Origin: Phycisphaerae bacterium
GTDB lineage: Bacteria; Planctomycetota; Phycisphaerae; Sedimentisphaerales; Anaerobacaceae
Assembly: GCA_030619925.1 (NCBI GenBank)
Contig: JAUXAL010000008.1
Coordinates: 1,509-65,508 of the forward strand
Direction of reading: 5' to 3'
DNA: 64,000 nt
Positions 13,074 to 30,265 of the stretch are shown one piece after another. Numbering within the stretch: position 1 is the stretch's first letter; the number at the start of each line of letters is the position of its first letter. Under the pieces are notes generated by a model. That model saw only the letters and a list, made by a program, of their open reading frames with translations, ran no database searches and had not been told where the DNA came from. A program made the position numbers and the translations under genes.

Positions 13074-13167
13074 GTCATTCCTGCGAAAGCAGGAATCCAG
13101 ATGTATCGAAGTTCTGGATTCCGCATCAAAGCCTGCCCTGAGCAAAGCCGAATGGGTGCGGAATGAC
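13074..13167. repeat. 94-bp element with terminal inverted repeats gtcattcc(t)gc / gcggaatgac and two internal hairpins
   Basis: gtcattcctgc at 13074 and gcggaatgac at 13158-13167. Internal cctgc-gaaa-gcagg and ggaatccag...ctggattcc. Confidence 0.65.
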
Positions 13168-15285: not shown

Positions 15286-16167
15286 TTATTTTCTCCCCAA
15301 TTGCCGGATGACATCGACCAATGCCTGGGTTCCGTCCCGGCCTCGGCCCTGGGCCTGAAGGACGGCCAATAACTGCCTGGCTAAAGCCACACCCGGTAGG
15401 GGCTGCTTTAACTGCTCAGCATACTCGAGAACCAGCCGCAAATCCTTTTGTTGCAAATCAACCATAAAGGCAGGCTTCAAATCGCCGGCAATTACTTTTG
15501 GTCCCAGGGCTTTCAGCGAGTGACTTGCCGCAGCACCTGCAGAAGTTACTTTCAAGGTAGTCTCCAAATCCAGACCTGCTTTTTCGGCAAACGCAAGACC
15601 TTCGGCGAGGCTCATTATCGTGTGAATGACCATTATCTGGTTGGCCAGCTTTGTCATCTGCCCTGAACCGAGTGGGCCGCAATAGGTCACCGTTCGTCCC
15701 ATTACCTCCATAACCGGACGCACCTTTTCTACCGCTTCTTTCGGCCCGCCCATCATTATCGAAAGCTTGCCTTCTATCGCTCCTATTTCACCACCGCTTA
15801 TAGGTGCATCGATTAAGGTTACACCTTTACCTTCAAGAATTTGCCCCATCTCTTTTGTCGCCGCTGGTGATATGGTGCTCATATCTATGCAGATAAGGCC
15901 CGGCCTTGCTGCTGCAATTACGCCGCTCTTACCGAGCAATACCTGCCGAACATCGGGTGTGTCGGTGACACAGGTTATTACAACGTCACTGCGGTTCGCA
16001 ACATCGGCAGGATTTGCAGCCCAGGCTGCACCCTCGGTGAGGAGCTGCTCAGCCTTTGTTCTTGTGCGATTGTGGATGGTCAGCCGGTATCCCGCCTTTA
16101 ACAGGTTGAGCGCCATCGGCTTACCCATGATACCGGTACCAACAAAGCCGATTCTCTCTTTGGCCAT
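15286..16167 (-). CDS. NAD(P)-dependent 3-hydroxyisobutyrate / 2-hydroxy-3-oxopropionate reductase family dehydrogenase
   Basis: IGFVGTGIMGKPMALNL Rossmann motif and 6-phosphogluconate-dehydrogenase-like C-terminal domain, 293 aa. Confidence 0.8.
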   Translation of the reverse strand: MAKERIGFVGTGIMGKPMALNLLKAGYRLTIHNRTRTKAEQLLTEGAAWAANPADVANRSDVVITCVTDTPDVRQVLLGKSGVIAAARPGLICIDMSTISPAATKEMGQILEGKGVTLIDAPISGGEIGAIEGKLSIMMGGPKEAVEKVRPVMEVMGRTVTYCGPLGSGQMTKLANQIMVIHTIMSLAEGLAFAEKAGLDLETTLKVTSAGAAASHSLKALGPKVIAGDLKPAFMVDLQQKDLRLVLEYAEQLKQPLPGVALARQLLAVLQAQGRGRDGTQALVDVIRQLGRK

Positions 16168-17122: not shown

Positions 17123-18448
17123 CTATTTCTCGCTCTTTATTTTGCGGAAACAACTTTTAGCTGCTTCAATAGTCTTTTCAATATCGGCCTTGCTGTGAGC
17201 TAATGAGACAAACATTGCCTCGTAAGCACTTGGAGCAAGATAAATGCCCTGCTCTAACATCTCCGCAAAGAATCTTTTGAACCGTTTTATATTGGTTGAC
17301 TGAACATCGGCAAAGTTCCGCACTTCTCTTTCAGTGAAGAAACAGCTCATAATCGAGCCGACACGATTAATTGTAACAGCAATACCAGCCTCTTTAGCGG
17401 CATCAGCCAGGCCGGCCTCTAACATTGCTGCTGAAGACTCAAGTCTGCGATAGCAATCTTCTTTTGTCAGTATATCGAGTGTCGCATTGGCTGCTGCTGT
17501 TGCGATTGGGTTGCCGGACAGCGTGCCCGCCTGATAGACCGGCCCGGTTGGGGCCAGCATATCCATGATATCGGCTCGGCCGCCGAGGGCCGCTGCCGGC
17601 AGGCCACCTCCAATGATTTTGCCTAAACAGGTAATATCAGCTTTTACCCCGAAAAGCTCCTGTGCTCCCCCGAGGGCCAAGCGAAAGCCGGTTATCACCT
17701 CGTCAAATATCAAAAGCGAATCGTCTTGGTCGCACAAATTCCGAAGCGTCTGCAAGTATCCCTCAACTGGTGGCACCACGCCCATATTCGCAGCGACAGG
17801 CTCAACGAGAACCGCTGCGATTTTTCCTTTGTGCGTTCCGAAGGCGGCCTTTGCCGCCTCGATATCGTTATACGGAATTACGACGGTCAGCTTCGCAATC
17901 GAATCAGGAACACCCCCACTCGAAGCGATGGCACCTTCGGCAAGGCCCGAGCCTGCAGCCACCAGCAATGAATCGCTGTGGCCGTGATAACAGCCGGCCA
18001 TTTTGATAATGTAGGGGCGGTTCGCGAACCGCCCGTACTTTTTTGGGGTATATGCACGGGCCAGCCGGATAGCGGTCATTACCGCCTCAGTGCCGCTGCT
18101 TACAAGCCGCACCTTCTCGATGGAATCAAAGGCGGCGATTATTTTCTTAGCCAGAGCAGTCTCAGCTAACGTCGGTGCTCCGAACGACGTGCCTTTCTCC
18201 ACCGCGGCGCCGATAGCTTTCAATACCTCCGGATGCGCGTGTCCGAGTATCATCGGCCCCCACGAGCCGACGTAGTCGATGTATTCATTGCCGTCAATAT
18301 CGTGGATTTTTGAGCCCTTTGCCCCGGCGACAAAAACAGGACCAATATCCACCCCGCCAAAGGCCCTCACCGGCGAATTGACGCCGCCCGGCAGACAATT
18401 ACACGCCTCGGCAAAGGCCTGTGCCGATTTATTTGACTTCTCTGTCAT
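17123..18448 (-). CDS. hemL: glutamate-1-semialdehyde 2,1-aminomutase
   Basis: LPGGVNSPVRAF, GCYHGH, DEVITGFR and CLGKIIGGGLP motifs. Start set at ATG 18448 (MTEKSNKS), since the upstream part of the ORF is heptamer repeat. Confidence 0.9.
   Translation of the reverse strand: MTEKSNKSAQAFAEACNCLPGGVNSPVRAFGGVDIGPVFVAGAKGSKIHDIDGNEYIDYVGSWGPMILGHAHPEVLKAIGAAVEKGTSFGAPTLAETALAKKIIAAFDSIEKVRLVSSGTEAVMTAIRLARAYTPKKYGRFANRPYIIKMAGCYHGHSDSLLVAAGSGLAEGAIASSGGVPDSIAKLTVVIPYNDIEAAKAAFGTHKGKIAAVLVEPVAANMGVVPPVEGYLQTLRNLCDQDDSLLIFDEVITGFRLALGGAQELFGVKADITCLGKIIGGGLPAAALGGRADIMDMLAPTGPVYQAGTLSGNPIATAAANATLDILTKEDCYRRLESSAAMLEAGLADAAKEAGIAVTINRVGSIMSCFFTEREVRNFADVQSTNIKRFKRFFAEMLEQGIYLAPSAYEAMFVSLAHSKADIEKTIEAAKSCFRKIKSEK
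18015..18034. repeat. perfect 20-nt palindrome inside hemL coding sequence
   Basis: gggcggttcgcgaaccgccc equals its own reverse complement. It encodes GRFANRP within an 8-aa segment absent from the ARxxTGRxKIIKFxGCYHG region as remembered for E. coli HemL. Confidence 0.85.
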
Positions 18449-18479
18449 CTGTCCTCTGTAATCTGTCCTCTGTCTTTCT
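18438..18479. repeat. 6 tandem heptamers (TNNTCTG) overlapping the hemL start codon
   Basis: ttctctg tcatctg tcctctg taatctg tcctctg tctttct. Confidence 0.8.
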
Positions 18480-18634
18480 ATCATAAGACGATTGGCGGCA
18501 AAATTCAAACTATTTGTATAAACTCCGGCCACAACAGTTTTTGCAGCCAGGGGAGGACTATTTTTCTTGCAATGCCTGCGCGATTTGCTAAACTCACAAG
18601 GTTTTAGAAATTTGTCTGAAATTGGAGCAAATGT

Positions 18635-24286: not shown

Positions 24287-25066
24287 ATGGATAAGTTAGT
24301 GATTGCAGAAAGACAGTTCAATTCCCGACTGCTTGTGGGAACAGGCAAGTTTGCATCGTGTGAGATTATGGCTGATGCTATCGAAAAGTCGGGCACCGAG
24401 ATCGTTACTGTTGCGCTTCGCAGAGTGGATATCGAAAACGAAAACGACGATATGCTAAGCGCAATTGACCGCAAAAAATATCTGCTGCTGCCCAACACTT
24501 CCGGTGCTCGCGATGCCGATGAGGCGGTCCGCCTTGCAAAACTGGCGCGGGCGGCAACGGGGATTGAATGGGTGAAACTCGAAGTTACGCCTGACCCGTA
24601 TTATCTGCTGCCGGATCCCGTAGAGACACTAAAGGCAGCCGAGATTCTGATAAAGGATGGCTTCGTTGTTCTGCCTTACATCAATGCGGACCCGATTTTG
24701 GCAAAGAAGCTTGAAGACGCCGGCGCTGCGACGGTGATGCCGCTTGGGAGCCCTATCGGTTCAAATCAGGGACTCAAGACCCGCTCGTCGCTGGAGATTA
24801 TAATCCAGCAGAGCAATGTGCCGGTCGTGGTTGATGCCGGGTTGGGGCTTCCCTCACACGCGGCCGAGGCAATGGAAATAGGCGCAGATGCAGTTCTGGT
24901 TAATACAGCAATTGCAACGGCGGCTGAGCCGACTGAAATGGCAAAAGCATTTAGACTCGCTGTTGAGGCAGGGCGGTTGGCTTATGAATCCGGGTCGGCA
25001 CCTGTCAGTAAAAGAGCAAGTGCTTCCAGTCCGCTGACGGGCTTTTTGAGAGATGAAAATGATTAG
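24287..25066 (+). CDS. thiG: thiazole synthase ThiG
   Basis: [19 protein letters not shown] start, NTSGA and [13 protein letters not shown] motifs. Start set at ATG 24287 within ORF 24149..25066. Confidence 0.9.
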
Positions 25067-26309
25067 CACACGGAAATATCTCGGCCCAGACATAAAAACG
25101 ATACTGGCTGAGAAGGGCCTCGATAGCAATGGCCGGCTCTGGCGCGACCGGCTGGAGAACACAAGTGGCAGGGAGGTTGAAAGAGCTTTGGCTTGCGCCA
25201 CCGGTAGCTATAGTTTGGAGAAGCTGTTGGCGTTTATCTCGCCGGCCGCTGAAGATTACCTTGAAGAGATGGCGCAGTTAGCCCGGCAGCTTACCGTTCA
25301 AAGATTTGGGCGGACAATCAGACTTTATGCCCCGCTGTATTTGTCCAATTTCTGCGTCAACAGCTGCCGATACTGCGGCTTCAATAGAGAAAATAAATTT
25401 AAGCGAACCAGATTGACCATTGAGCAGGCTCTTACCGAAGCTGATATTATCGCAGCCGAAGGTTTTAGAGACATACTGCTTGTCAGTAGTGAAGATAGAA
25501 AAATTGTTAGCATTGAGTATCTTACGGAACTTGCGAAGAAACTGAGAAGCAAATTCAGCTCTATCTCGATAGAAGTATATCAGATGGGCGTCGCTGAATA
25601 TGCAAAGCTCTTTGAGGCAGGTATTAAGGGAGTTACGGTCTATCAGGAAACATATGACCGGGAGGCATATGCATATTATCATCCTGCCGGCCCAAAGTCT
25701 GATTATGATAACAGATTAGACACTCCGGACCGCGTTGCTGCTGCTGGTATGCGCGAGATTGGATTGGGCGTTCTTTTGGGCCTGGTCCCGTTAGAAGTTG
25801 ACGGCTTACTTCTAACGGGACAGGCGGACTGGCGAGTTGAGACCCTGGCCTTAGCCGAACATGCTCACTACCTGGTCAAACGCTATTGGCGGTCGCGCGT
25901 GTCGTTTTCTTTTCCAAGGCTGCGGCCTGCGTACCCCGCCCCTGAAGCAGTGGCGGGGCAGTCCAAGCATCTACTTAGTGATAAGAACCTTGTACAGATG
26001 ATGATGGCACTGCGATTGTGCTTCGCTGATGCGGGACTGGTGCTGTCAACTCGGGAGCGCGCCGAATTGAGAGACCGTCTGATTAAACTTGGGACAACCA
26101 AAATGAGCGCGGGCAGCAAGACCTGTCCGGGCGGATATTCGGAGCAGACAGATGCCCCGCCGAAGGCGGGTATGATCAGACCCTGCGTTGCCGGGAGGCA
26201 ATTTGAAATTGACGATAGTCGCAGCCCGGCTCAAGTGGCCGCTATGATAAGGGCCCAGGGCGCCGAACCGGTTTGGAAAGACTGGGACAGCGCTTTTGAC
26301 GAAGATTAG
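25053..26309 (+). CDS. thiH: 2-iminoacetate synthase ThiH (radical SAM)
   Basis: [10 protein letters not shown] radical-SAM cluster motif, [16 protein letters not shown]-terminus. 418 aa, i.e. longer than remembered ThiH (about 377 aa) because of in-frame insertions. Confidence 0.9.
25787..25819. repeat. 33-nt perfect hairpin element (CCCGTTAGAAG ... CTTCTAACGGG) inside thiH
   Basis: 11-bp perfect stem 25787-25797 / 25809-25819 with an 11-nt loop. It encodes part of [13 protein letters not shown], which interrupts the conserved LGL / DWRV segment. Confidence 0.85.
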
Positions 26310-26404
26310 CAGGCCATGCAAATATCCGGGCGTCACACTTTTCCATCGTTATCAATTGGTGATGATTCCGGCCCTTTAATCTTGCCGGCCAGCGGCCGGT
26401 CTGC

Positions 26405-29400
26405 TCATGCCCGCCTTCGGTGGGCGAACTCTTTCATTGCACAATACAGAACCGGCACGACGAGCATCGTAAGTACTTCAATCGTCATTCCTCCAAAGGA
26501 AGGTATTGCCATCGGCACCATAATATCAGAACCCCTTCCGGTCGAGGTAAGCACGGGGATAAGCGCCAGGACCGTTGTGGCGGTTGTCATAAGACAGGGA
26601 CGAATTCTGCGAGTACCAGCCTCAACCACGGCCCGGCGGATCTGAGCAACTCCACGGGGCTTTTGGGCCTGGAACGACTGCCTGAGATACGTACACATCA
26701 CAACGCCATCGTCGGATGCAATCCCGAACAGCGCCAGAAACCCGACCCAGATAGCGACGCTGAGATTAATCGTGTGCACGTCGAACAGCTCCCGCATATT
26801 CACCCCGAACACGCCGAAGTTCAGGAACCACTCCCGGCTGTACAGCCATATCATTAAGAATCCGCCCGACCATGCGACAATTATCCCCGAAAATATCAGC
26901 AGGCTGGTCACGGTGGATTTGAAATGGAAATAGAGAATTATGAATATGATAAAAAGGGCCAAGGGTATAACTACGGAGAGTGTTTTCTGTGCGCGAATCT
27001 GATTTTCATAGCTGCCGGCAAAGACATAACTGGTTCCTCTGAGGTTTAGTCCGGGCAGAGAGTCAATCTTCTGCTCGGTAAGGGTGCGGCCTTGTTTTGC
27101 TGCTGTTTCCGAGGCATCCTCAAAAGCCTTGCTAAATGTTTCGGCTTGATGTTTGAGATACCGCTGACATTCTTCGACGACGTCAACCTCGGCGTGCCCG
27201 GGCTTCATATCAAAGAGTACGTAACCGACAAGAAATGTGTCCTCGCTCTTTATGGCCTGAGGACCACGCACATAGCGAATTTCCGCCAATTGGATAAGTG
27301 GTATCTGGGCCCCATCGGCTGATGGAACTAAAATCTTGCCTAACGTTTCGACCTGGTCCCGCAATTCGCGCACGTATCTGACTCTTACGCCGAATCGCTC
27401 GCGTCCCTCAACGGTTGTAGTAATGCGCCTGCCCCCTATCGCAACCTCAATAACATCCTGAACCTGCCCGATATTCATTCCATACCGCGCTATGGCCTGG
27501 CGGTTTATATCAATCTCCAGGTAGGGCTTGCCTACGATCCGGTCGGCAATTACAGCGGCCGGCTCTACACTGGGAACTTCCTTGAGAAAGCGCTCGATTT
27601 CCAGGCCAACCCGATCGATTGTGTTGAGGTCCGGCCCCTTGATCTTGACGCCCATCGGCGCGCGCATACCGCTCTGGAGCATTACTATTCGCGCGGCGAT
27701 AGGCTGCAGCTTGGGCGCACTGGTGGTGCCGGGAATCTTAGCGGCATTTACTATTTCGTCCCAGATATCATCCGGGTTCTTAATATGTTCTCGCCATTGT
27801 CTAAAGGGTCTGCCGTATTTGTCGCGTATGAGTTCGTTTTGGTCATCGCGGATAAATTCGCCGGCCTTTTTGTCGTATCTAAAGCGAATACGATGCCCGT
27901 CTTTGTCGGTCAGGTACTCCGGCTTGTAATTGATGACAGTTTCAATCATCGATATCGGGGCAGGATCAAGAGGCGACTCGACGCGGCCAATTTTTCCCAC
28001 TACCGAGTCGATCTCGGGGATGGACTGCAGGGCTATGTCCTGCTTTTGCAGGACGTCCAGACATTCTCCAATTGAGGCATGGGGCATAGTTGTCGGCATA
28101 TACAGAAATGAGCCCTCATCCAAAGGCGGCATAAATTCCTTGCCGAGTCCGGGAAAACTGTGCACCGCAGCAAACCACAATCTGTTCGACTTCAACTTCT
28201 CCGGCACAAAGAAAAAGACTCTGCCAAACCCAAGCCACACCATCAAAGCCACAACAACGACTACGCTGGGAATCGATAAGAACGCCGTCTTATGCCTGAG
28301 GCACCAGCCCAAAATGGCCGGATAGAACTTCTGGAAAACCTTGAAAAACGACAGCAGCCCACCAATCAGGAGAACGACAAACACGAGATTTCGCACTAAA
28401 CCTTTATCCGAGCCCAACGGCAGCCAGTGGCTGGCAAGTATTACGCCAACTGTGACCACTGCCGCGGCATTGGCAATCAGGGGCAGGAAACTGTTCACTC
28501 TCTTTGGGATGTAGTCTCTTGAGAGATGATAAAACCCGATTGCGCCGATGAGAACACCTATCCACCAGGTAAGCCGGAAAGCTGCTATAACAGCGACGAC
28601 AATTAATAATCCGCCCAATATGTATCGATTCAGTTTTTTGAGAGCGGCTTTTCTTGTGAACAGGATGTGGGCGGCCGGCGGGATTATGGTTAAAGCGACT
28701 ATTACCGAAGCGATTAAAGCAAAGGTCTTGGTAAATGCCAGCGGCTTGAAGAGCTTGCCTTCCGCCCCGGTCATCGTGAAAACCGGCAAAAAGCTGACGA
28801 TGGTAGTCGAGACGGCCGTTAGGACTGCACCGCCGACCTCGCTGGTCGCCTTGAAAACGACCTCGAGCTTGTTATCGTCCGGTGCTGCTTCGTCGAGGTG
28901 CTTTAGGATATTTTCACAAATGATTATGCCCATATCGACCATTGTGCCGATGGCAATCGCAATGCCCGACAGCGCCACGATATTTGCATCGACGCCGAAG
29001 GTCTTCATTGCGATAAAGCACATCAGCACGGCCAAAGGGAGCAGGCCGCTGATGAGTACCGAGCTTCTGAGATGCACCACCAAAACGATAACCACGATGA
29101 TTGTAACGAGAATTTCCTCGGTCAGAGCTGTGTTCAATGTGCCTAAAGTTTCGTAAATAAGGCCTGTGCGATCATAGAAGGGGACGATTGTCACCTGGGA
29201 AACCGTGCCGTCGGGCAGGGTTTTTTTGTCAAGTCCCGGCGATATCTCTTCGATCTTCTTTTTTACATTTTGGATGGCTTCAAGGGGATTATAGCCGTAG
29301 CGTACAACCACCACACCGCCGACGGCCTCGGCTCCACCCTTGTCCAGCGCGCCTCGCCGCAGTGCAGGCCCGTATGACACCTTCGCTATATCTTTAATGT

Positions 29401-30265
29401 AGACCGGGACATTCTCGTTAACCTTTATTACGGACATTTCTATGTCTGAAAGGTCCTCGATAAAGCCCAGGCCACGAATTACATACTCGACTCTATTAAT
29501 CTCAATCGTCCTGGCTCCGACGTCAATGTTGGACATCTTGACCGCCATAAATATTTCGTCCAAGCCAACGTTGTAGGCTCGCATCGCGTCGGGGTCCACG
29601 TCAATCTGATACTCTTTAACAAAACCACCCACGGAGGCTACTTCACTTATGCCCTCGGCAGAGAGCAAGGCATAGCGCACATACCAGTCCTGGACAGTCC
29701 GCAGCTCGTCCAGACCCCACCCTCCGGTCGGATTGCCTTGCTCATCTCGACCTTCGAGCGTATACCAGAAGATTTGTCCCAGTGCAGTTGCATCAGGCCC
29801 CAGAGCGGGCTGGACTTCTGCGGGCAGTGAACCGGTGGGTAAGCTGTTGAGCTTCTCCAGGACCCTGCTTCGTGACCAGTAGAAATCCACATCGTCCTCG
29901 AAGATAATGTAAATCGAGGAGAAACCAAAAAATGAGTAACTGCGAATAGTCCTGACCCCGGGAATACCCAGAAGCGAGACGGTCAGAGGATATGATATTT
30001 GGTCTTCCACATCCTGTGGCGAACGACCCATCCATTGGGTAAAGACTATCTGCTGGTTTTCCCCGATGTCCGGTATCGCATCGACCGGCACAGGGTCGCG
30101 AGGCAGACCCCAAAGGTCCCAGTCAAATGGGGCAACCATGACACCCCATCCGAGGAACATTATTACTAAAAGTCCCACAATCAGCTTATTCTCAAGGCAA
30201 AATCGTATTACCTTGTCTATCGGCGATTGTTTCTGAGCAAGCAGTCCGTCCATAATTTCATTCAC
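26405..30265 (-). CDS. cusA: CusA/CzcA-family heavy-metal efflux RND transporter
   Basis: 1286-aa ORF with 12-TM RND architecture and two large periplasmic loops. It is clustered with a CusB-like adaptor, a YHS protein and CsoR. Confidence 0.8.
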   Translation of the reverse strand: MNEIMDGLLAQKQSPIDKVIRFCLENKLIVGLLVIMFLGWGVMVAPFDWDLWGLPRDPVPVDAIPDIGENQQIVFTQWMGRSPQDVEDQISYPLTVSLLGIPGVRTIRSYSFFGFSSIYIIFEDDVDFYWSRSRVLEKLNSLPTGSLPAEVQPALGPDATALGQIFWYTLEGRDEQGNPTGGWGLDELRTVQDWYVRYALLSAEGISEVASVGGFVKEYQIDVDPDAMRAYNVGLDEIFMAVKMSNIDVGARTIEINRVEYVIRGLGFIEDLSDIEMSVIKVNENVPVYIKDIAKVSYGPALRRGALDKGGAEAVGGVVVVRYGYNPLEAIQNVKKKIEEISPGLDKKTLPDGTVSQVTIVPFYDRTGLIYETLGTLNTALTEEILVTIIVVIVLVVHLRSSVLISGLLPLAVLMCFIAMKTFGVDANIVALSGIAIAIGTMVDMGIIICENILKHLDEAAPDDNKLEVVFKATSEVGGAVLTAVSTTIVSFLPVFTMTGAEGKLFKPLAFTKTFALIASVIVALTIIPPAAHILFTRKAALKKLNRYILGGLLIVVAVIAAFRLTWWIGVLIGAIGFYHLSRDYIPKRVNSFLPLIANAAAVVTVGVILASHWLPLGSDKGLVRNLVFVVLLIGGLLSFFKVFQKFYPAILGWCLRHKTAFLSIPSVVVVVALMVWLGFGRVFFFVPEKLKSNRLWFAAVHSFPGLGKEFMPPLDEGSFLYMPTTMPHASIGECLDVLQKQDIALQSIPEIDSVVGKIGRVESPLDPAPISMIETVINYKPEYLTDKDGHRIRFRYDKKAGEFIRDDQNELIRDKYGRPFRQWREHIKNPDDIWDEIVNAAKIPGTTSAPKLQPIAARIVMLQSGMRAPMGVKIKGPDLNTIDRVGLEIERFLKEVPSVEPAAVIADRIVGKPYLEIDINRQAIARYGMNIGQVQDVIEVAIGGRRITTTVEGRERFGVRVRYVRELRDQVETLGKILVPSADGAQIPLIQLAEIRYVRGPQAIKSEDTFLVGYVLFDMKPGHAEVDVVEECQRYLKHQAETFSKAFEDASETAAKQGRTLTEQKIDSLPGLNLRGTSYVFAGSYENQIRAQKTLSVVIPLALFIIFIILYFHFKSTVTSLLIFSGIIVAWSGGFLMIWLYSREWFLNFGVFGVNMRELFDVHTINLSVAIWVGFLALFGIASDDGVVMCTYLRQSFQAQKPRGVAQIRRAVVEAGTRRIRPCLMTTATTVLALIPVLTSTGRGSDIMVPMAIPSFGGMTIEVLTMLVVPVLYCAMKEFAHRRRA

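Follow-up and report, generated by a model that had tools for sequence, protein, structure and literature searches.

A 28-bp GTAG-type palindrome in frame in hemL of a Phycisphaerae bacterium, with empty sites in its relatives and copies across bacterial phyla

How did a perfect DNA palindrome come to lie in frame in hemL, the gene of an essential-pathway enzyme, and to what kind of element does it belong? The question is raised by 64,000 nt of a Phycisphaerae bacterium (GenBank assembly GCA_030619925.1, contig JAUXAL010000008.1, positions 1,509 to 65,508 of the forward strand), a stretch of a metagenome-assembled genome (MAG) that is called the window below. An earlier note on it had proposed that hairpin elements colonise coding sequence in frame here, as Rickettsia palindromic elements (RPEs) do. 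We consider it likely, with a probability of about 0.8, that the hemL insert is a 28-bp double-foot GTAG repetitive extragenic palindrome (REP), a non-autonomous element of the kind that goes with subclass 2.4 of the HuH/Y1 transposases TnpA-REP (REP-associated tyrosine transposases, RAYTs), and that it was inserted in a recent ancestor of this Sedimentisphaerales-like Planctomycetota lineage. The host gene codes for glutamate-1-semialdehyde 2,1-aminomutase (GSAM) and occupies 17123–18448 on the minus strand (441 codons plus stop). Its open reading frame (ORF) spans 17123–18532, and the true start is the ATG at 18448 (MTEKSNKS), which matches the start of 433-aa homologues. Apart from the insertion the gene is intact: HemL matched solved GSAM structures with E=5.6e-145, its pyridoxal phosphate lysine is K277, and dN/dS of the gene against relatives is 0.08–0.19.

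The palindrome is a perfect 20-nt core, GGGCGGTTCGCGAACCGCCC, at 18015–18034, and it equals its own reverse complement as had been noted. It is the sole loop-free palindrome with arms of at least 8 nt in the window, where ∼0.06 perfect 10+10 palindromes would be expected (64000/4^10 per 64 kb), and none of the shuffled sequences matched it, even with 3 mismatches allowed. With one mismatch the palindrome reaches 28 nt (18011–18038, 13 of 14 pairs). This unit, GTAG + GGGCGGTTCGCGAACCGCCC + GTAC, encodes residues Y138–Y146 of HemL (YGRFANRPY), and the protein at the insertion site reads ARAYTPKKYGRFANRPYIIKMAGCYHG. The GTAG at 18011–18014 forms a 5' foot directly at the stem, the base of the stem consists of three G-C pairs (GGG at 18015–18017, CCC at 18032–18034), and the 3' foot GTAC shares three of four bases with the CTAC of the family described below. 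The 28-nt unit falls within the 20–40 bp of G+C-rich REP stem-loops, and its predicted hairpin has −12 kcal/mol when folded as DNA (z −4.3) and −17.2 kcal/mol when folded as RNA.

We compared this site with those of HemL orthologs, the closest relatives included. The GSAM structures 3k28, 3bs8 and 4e77 show an 8-residue gap exactly at the palindrome, in agreement with the ∼8 extra residues claimed for it, and other GSAM chains match over similarly shorter lengths. All 119 other proteins among the 120 best HemL homologues (80–96% identity) read ARAYTKKDLIIKMAGCYHG and lack the extra residues. In a diverse set of 150 representatives of 50%-identity clusters (38–78% identity to HemL), 147 are of standard length at this point; the rest are two fragments and one protein, P0146, whose 7-residue insert at this loop is unrelated. 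The presence of the eight residues in HemL of unrelated taxa, which would speak against an insertion, was thus not observed in this set. At the nucleotide level, the closest relative (L001, 97.6% hemL nucleotide identity) carries an empty site, ACC AAAAAGGACTTA ATT, against ACC CCAAAAAAGTACGGGCGGTTCGCGAACCGCCCCTAC ATT in the window; the empty hemL target sequence is ACCAAAAAGGACTTAATT. Alignment with four empty relatives (L001–L004) and one filled allele (L125, see below) delimited a derived segment of 36 nt (18011–18046, minus strand; residues 135–146, PKKYGRFANRPY) that substitutes for the 12 ancestral nucleotides AAAAAGGACTTA (KKDL), a net gain of 24 nt or 8 residues. An extra CCA codon (Pro135) occupies 18044–18046, and bases are changed on both sides of the core. 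The palindromic insert of the earlier note therefore stands as a palindrome; its extent grows from 20 to 28 nt, its net gain is 24 nt, and the insertion is not clean. The alignments show a recent entry of the palindrome into hemL, since every close relative among these homologues has the site without it.

The window comes from a MAG, and an assembly or sequencing artefact would be a trivial explanation for an insert of this sort. However, an independent assembly in ENA (contig L125, from another sample, at 19.7x) has an identical 45-nt filled region in a hemL that differs at 3.6% of bases; its HemL, P0121, is the second member of the 90% cluster of the window protein. The insertion is also in frame, with a stop removed. 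Because L125 has the identical filled region, the insertion cannot be put down to assembly and is not restricted to a single genome; we reject the artefact and regard its probability as negligible. The two filled alleles differ by 17 synonymous and 6 non-synonymous changes (dN/dS 0.11), a ratio like those of the other comparisons, which indicates that hemL has been under purifying selection since the insertion. The window, L125 and L001 form an effective trichotomy: sites shared by the window and L125 are confined to the insert region, and the alternative pairings, L125 with L001 and the window with L001, have 2 supporting sites each. The empty allele of L001 may reflect a split before the insertion or may have been gained by recombination, neither of which is favoured. 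No further filled hemL allele was found in JGI metagenome contigs by a search with the core plus hemL flank. The L125 hemL (L125 5001–6437) has in addition a second in-frame insert of 75 nt, which encodes AENAEAAEKKMKLKNSASSADSAVKS, has the inverted arms CCGCAGAGAACGCTGAG/CTCAGCGAGCTCTGCGG and is flanked by ∼20 clustered substitutions; the window is without it.

We next scanned one genome per species (596 Gb) for the exact 20-mer. It was present in at least 120 genome stretches, whereas ∼0.5 would be expected by chance, and a chance palindrome is rejected on these matches and the 4-nt feet that they share. The matches listed include KSB1, Nitrospinota, Chloroflexota/Dehalococcoidia, Desulfobacterota, Cyanobacteriota, Acidobacteriota, Bacteroidota, Calditrichota, Planctomycetota (Sedimentisphaerales, Pirellulales), Myxococcota, Bdellovibrionota, Omnitrophota, Kiritimatiellota, Actinomycetota and Gammaproteobacteria, with Rubrobacter, Thiothrix and Parabacteroides among the genera. 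The element also occurs in 23 stretches of IMG/VR viral contigs (29 copies, up to four per contig); megablast of the 28-mer against PLSDB plasmids gave no match. In 131 copies elsewhere, taken from the matches listed, conservation ends abruptly 4 nt beyond the core and the flanks are unrelated past the feet. Among these 131, GTAG stands on the left in 88, CTAC on the right in 73, and both in 45. From this limit of conservation and the feet, the unit is a 28-nt perfect palindrome, GTAGGGGCGGTTCGCGAACCGCCCCTAC. The suggestion that the palindrome is a dispersed element is thus borne out by copies in genomes and viral contigs with unrelated flanks.

The same copies bear on a local origin of the palindrome, unrelated to any mobile element, by template switching, hairpin-mediated repair or slippage. 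The complex junctions in hemL, with substitutions and a separate 3-nt gain, are of the kind seen in templated complex mutations. However, neither arm pre-exists at the ancestral site, and at least 150 unrelated places have this very 20-mer with the same 4-nt feet (∼0.5 expected). Local template switching is rejected on account of these identical footed copies, and a local origin in any form seems to us very improbable. Two observations on copies elsewhere are recorded here. A copy in a Bdellovibrionales genome (L023 7855) lies just upstream of the hemL start codon, in the 5' leader, and is a coincidental second association with hemL. Copies in a Sedimentisphaerales MAG (L020 3453) and a Pirellulales MAG (L072 7937) have extended common flanks, CCCGAAC GTAG-core ... 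CCCGAACCATATATA, which suggests a larger composite repeat in Planctomycetota.

The unit resembles a class of elements that has been described previously. GTAG-tagged REPs were defined by Di Nocera et al. 2013 (PMC3733652), and Quentin et al. 2018 (PMC6006769) reported that 'double foot' REPs, with GT[AG]G at the 5' side, C[TC]AC at the 3' side and three G-C pairs at the stem base, go with TnpA-Y1 subclass 2.4. REPs in frame inside tnpA-REP genes were also described for this subclass (PMC6006769). In four of our contigs the same 28-nt REP lies in frame after the HuH motif of Y1-transposase-like genes (L056 271–765; L016 1–270; L071 1865–2368 and 136–708; L076 2–468). These RAYT-like genes, which are subclass 2.4-like, read MPNHLHGI..-RGGSRTAPT-..LGRLIGAFK..WQRNYYEH..YIxNNP and give a weak Pfam Y1_Tnp match. 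A further REP variant follows directly after the RAYT-like stop codon in L056 (GRFANGPFT reading), and the L076 gene is apparently frameshifted at the REP. The window copy is intragenic (hemL codons 138–146) and in this respect departs from the extragenic definition of REPs, to which intragenic exceptions are on record (PMC3733652, PMC6006769). The hemL element is best placed in the described double-foot GTAG REP class associated with subclass 2.4.

Read on either strand, the 28-mer gives the same three frames: VGAVREPPL, RGGSRTAPT and *GRFANRPY, in the last of which the TAG of the foot is a stop. GTAG REPs wholly within ORFs, and translated, have been reported, and the TAG of their foot can act as a stop (PMC3733652). 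In-frame copies confirmed elsewhere are read in one or other of the two open frames: those in hydantoinase B (L012) and PurL (L085), the two in a secreted repeat protein (L019), the one that directly follows the signal peptide of a glycosidase (L122), and those in the RAYT-like genes. The hemL copy uses the third frame. Its sole departure from the 28-nt consensus is the base at 18035 (G on the plus strand, C in the consensus of copies elsewhere), which turns codon 138 on the coding strand from TAG (stop) into TAC (Tyr138). We infer that only a copy with a TAG-less foot could survive in the frame of hemL. The GTAC foot is rare elsewhere (2 of the 131 copies, plus a few viral copies); since the variant does exist, the change from TAG to TAC may precede or follow the insertion.

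The insertion could have come about in the following way. The REP would have been copied via a folded single-stranded hairpin, which a cognate TnpA-REP would cut and join with the GTAG foot as guide and with cleavage at CT or CA. Survival in hemL would have been limited to a frame-restored version, with the net gain of 24 nt, the remodelled junctions and the change of TAG to TAC, and the insert would then be kept as a near-neutral passenger. TnpA-REP activity with a folded single strand and a GTAG guide was shown in vitro with the systems of E. coli, S. maltophilia and Marinomonas (PMC8266576). Elsewhere, genomes have this REP within subclass 2.4-like genes or beside them.

Several observations count against insertion by a TnpA-REP. 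The known cases of transposition by these enzymes are all in vitro and concern REP families other than this one (PMC8266576). The junctions in hemL are not those of a clean cut-and-paste event: there is an extra CCA 9 nt upstream, GACTTA is replaced, and a target-site duplication is absent. The 28-nt unit alone cannot keep the reading frame; the net gain of 24 nt with remodelled flanks implies that an untidy event was selected or that compensation followed. REPs typically reach a high copy number within a genome, but the window has one copy only (scans for GTAG hairpins and with up to 5 mismatches; no hairpin follows GTAGGGGC at 15396), and ∼62 kb of five related contigs have no copy besides the same hemL site. 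In a REPtron the REP and its cognate TnpA-REP gene share one genome; tblastn with the L056 RAYT-like protein found no RAYT-like gene in the window.

The state of the junctions also bears on a second route, one without a RAYT. Here microhomology-mediated repair or gene conversion would have copied the REP from a different REP locus, or it would have come in with foreign DNA such as phage, and the donor flanks would have overwritten a few target bases. The remodelled junctions without target-site duplication speak for this route. On the plus strand the target T5GG has become T6GGGG beside the REP, as if a donor flank had been copied, and GGAC and CTTA in the target are similar to the feet GTAC and CTAC. 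The occurrence of the element in viral contigs would supply foreign DNA of this kind. However, there is no known donor locus, and no other sampled copy shows a T-run after a GTAC foot. We therefore judge this route unlikely, while taking it as a serious competitor to insertion by a TnpA-REP.

Whether the insert could be tolerated by the protein was considered on an AlphaFold model of HemL built on a diverse alignment of 114 sequences (pLDDT 95, pTM 0.94, with a block pLDDT of 83–87 over the insert); a model from 42 near-identical homologues gave pLDDT 41 and was set aside. The model superposes on solved GSAM structures with TM 0.93–0.98 and a root-mean-square deviation of 0.8–1.1 Å. In it, helix 119–138 is about one turn longer, a loop is added at 139–145, and strand 146–150 leads to G152-C-Y-H-G; the predicted HemL fold is unaltered by the insert. 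The surface loop expected by the earlier note is found in the model as a loop at a helix-to-strand turn, and its exposure at the surface is probable from the topology and from the independent insertion at the same loop in P0146. The insert is probably near-neutral, because only a helix-to-strand turn is lengthened, at a place that accommodates an insertion in another HemL lineage as well.

Alternatively, the hairpin or its peptide might be retained because it is useful, as an mRNA structure for translation or stability, an antisense terminator, a protein-binding site, or a surface loop for regulation or partners. The filled allele is unchanged in two strains with dS ∼0.06. On the plus strand the hairpin is followed by T6 (18015–18044), a putative terminator antisense to hemL as judged from the pattern, and REP effects on mRNA stability and termination have been reported (PMC3733652). 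The T-run stems from Lys codons already present at the site. In intrinsic terminators a G+C-rich hairpin with its T-run closes a transcription unit, but here both sit inside hemL and antisense to it. At ∼1.5–3.6% divergence a 45-nt stretch without any difference is expected anyway, and so gives no sign of special constraint; all other lineages are without the insert; and the same 28-mer stands elsewhere in arbitrary contexts and frames. A useful role is, in our estimate, quite improbable, and we keep to a REP inserted as a near-neutral passenger.

Further hairpin insertions occur in the window. The thiH case raised by the earlier note is a real one: a 39-nt insert at 25784–25822 (thiH ORF 25053–26309, plus strand), GTCCCGTTAGAAGT-loop-ACTTCTAACGGGAC, has perfect 14-bp arms, adds 13 residues in frame and is window-specific, being absent from L003 and L004. 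Together with the empty hemL sites and the dispersed copies, it supports the general interpretation that hairpin elements enter coding sequence in frame here. The thiH and pilin-leader hairpins are, however, of another sequence family than the hemL element, and the window has several families and not one. The thiH hairpin has no GTAG foot and has the arms CCCGTTAGAAGT/ACTTCTAACGGG, which, in the form CCCGTTAGAAGT-N9-ACTTCTAACGGG, were found in at least 120 metagenome contig stretches (L149–L228 among them) with varying loops and unrelated flanks. Direct repeats, such as gtcaaC[..]Gtcaac, often occupy the 5–6 nt just outside these arms and resemble target duplications. The 9-mer TCTAACGGG/CCCGTTAGA occurs 7 times in the window (25787, 25811, 48959, 49031, 49041, 49068, 50033), a 14-fold enrichment; two prepilin-like ORFs (GFTPLE, FLTG, SNG) have it in their leaders. 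Because the hemL REP, the thiH hairpin and the 75-nt insert in the L125 hemL differ from one another, the window lineage accumulates in-frame hairpin insertions from several families.

Some smaller features were seen along the way. A 7-nt tandem repeat, TCTGTCA (∼4.9 copies, 18440–18474), overlaps the hemL start region just upstream, and its copy number varies between the window and L001–L004. At the 3' end of an AcrB-like ORF (26405–30265, minus strand), a 35-nt insert at 26393–26427 is window-specific versus L003 and L004 and forms a short GCCC..GGGC hairpin. A hairpin at 13077–13122, ATTCCTGCGAAAGCAGGAAT, overlaps a second one, GGAATCCAGA..TCTGGATTCC; it resembles 'cattcctgcggaagcaggaatcca', which stands beside REP copies in the Dehalococcoidia loci L007 and L098, and may represent a third widespread hairpin family.

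The spread of REPs in vivo is an acknowledged open question. Their dissemination was called "poorly understood" by Corneloup et al. 2021, and Di Nocera et al. 2013 (PMC3733652) asked whether de novo formation of REPs continues. The filled hemL site, a 97.6%-identical empty site and a second filled strain provide a nucleotide-level record of one REP insertion. That one exact 28-mer is found in very distant phyla and also in viral contigs speaks for horizontal transfer of at least this REP/RAYT lineage, whereas REPIN-RAYT systems have been pictured as mostly vertical. For annotation, the frames VGAVREPPL, RGGSRTAPT and GRFANRPY explain lineage-specific oddities rich in G, R, P and A in conserved proteins. 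Tentatively, and with more doubt than belief, we add a wider possibility: the 28-bp double-foot REP might be a single, minimal and near pan-bacterial mobile DNA 'species', identical in more than 12 phyla through horizontal travel in its own subclass 2.4 RAYT gene, where it sits in frame, and on phages, and its insertions might go on to this day and reach even the core of essential enzymes. If so, the filled and empty hemL pair would be one of few REP insertions caught in the act, and its untidy junctions, which lack a duplication and have remodelled flanks and a restored frame, would reflect the real insertion pathway in vivo.

How does the hemL element compare with known systems? RPEs, as described by Ogata and colleagues in 2000, are reportedly palindromic repeats that lie in frame in genes of conserved proteins and are tolerated in surface regions. 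They are not known outside Rickettsia, and RPE-1 is ∼100–150 bp long and encodes tens of residues. Miniature inverted-repeat transposable elements (MITEs) are tens to hundreds of bp long, end in the inverted repeats of a parent insertion sequence and are flanked by a target-site duplication. The hemL unit differs from MITEs in being a 28-bp hairpin throughout, without target-site duplication, and does not belong with them. It is like RPEs in its in-frame insertion in a conserved coding gene (net gain of 24 nt, 8 residues), and differs from them in its 28-bp length, its GTAG foot, its presence in many phyla and its unrelated sequence; RPE-4 and RPE-6 are of the CGTC type and not of the GTAG type (PMC3733652). 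In the comparison with RPEs made by the earlier note, the in-frame insertion remains valid, whereas the RPE-like novelty gives way to a described GTAG double-foot REP.

The closest likeness is to the double-foot REPs (PMC6006769), with which the element shares the GT[AG]G foot at the stem, three G-C pairs and a long perfect stem and, in the consensus of its copies elsewhere, a complementary 3' foot. Those REPs likewise occur in Cyanobacteria, Bacteroidetes and scattered phyla, and in frame within RAYT-like genes, as the 28-mer does in L056, L016, L071 and L076. The hemL copy differs in its host, an essential-pathway enzyme gene in a Planctomycetota MAG, and in its one degenerate foot (GTAC). 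Its exact sequence is absent from the supplementary tables of that study, where the nearest entries are the GTAGGGGCGGGTT...AAACCCGCCC REPs of Arthrospira; across the supplements of PMC6006769 and PMC3733652, related GGGCGGGTT stems are present and the sequence itself is not, and neither the DNA core nor its three peptide readings gave a match in a full-text search of the literature. Like the intragenic GTAG REPs in uvrA and DNA ligase of Opitutus terrae (PMC3733652), the hemL copy is a short GTAG palindrome that lies fully within an ORF and is translated. Those cases come from REP-rich genomes and are often dimers encoding 20–30 aa, whereas hemL has a single 28-bp unit, in the frame where the TAG of the foot is a stop, with that stop removed. 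In-frame intragenic REPs are thus already documented; of interest here are the unexpectedly exact conservation of the 28-mer in phyla and viral contigs and a comparison of filled and empty sites at base resolution, since hemL offers both an empty-site relative and a filled sister strain that can be compared base by base.

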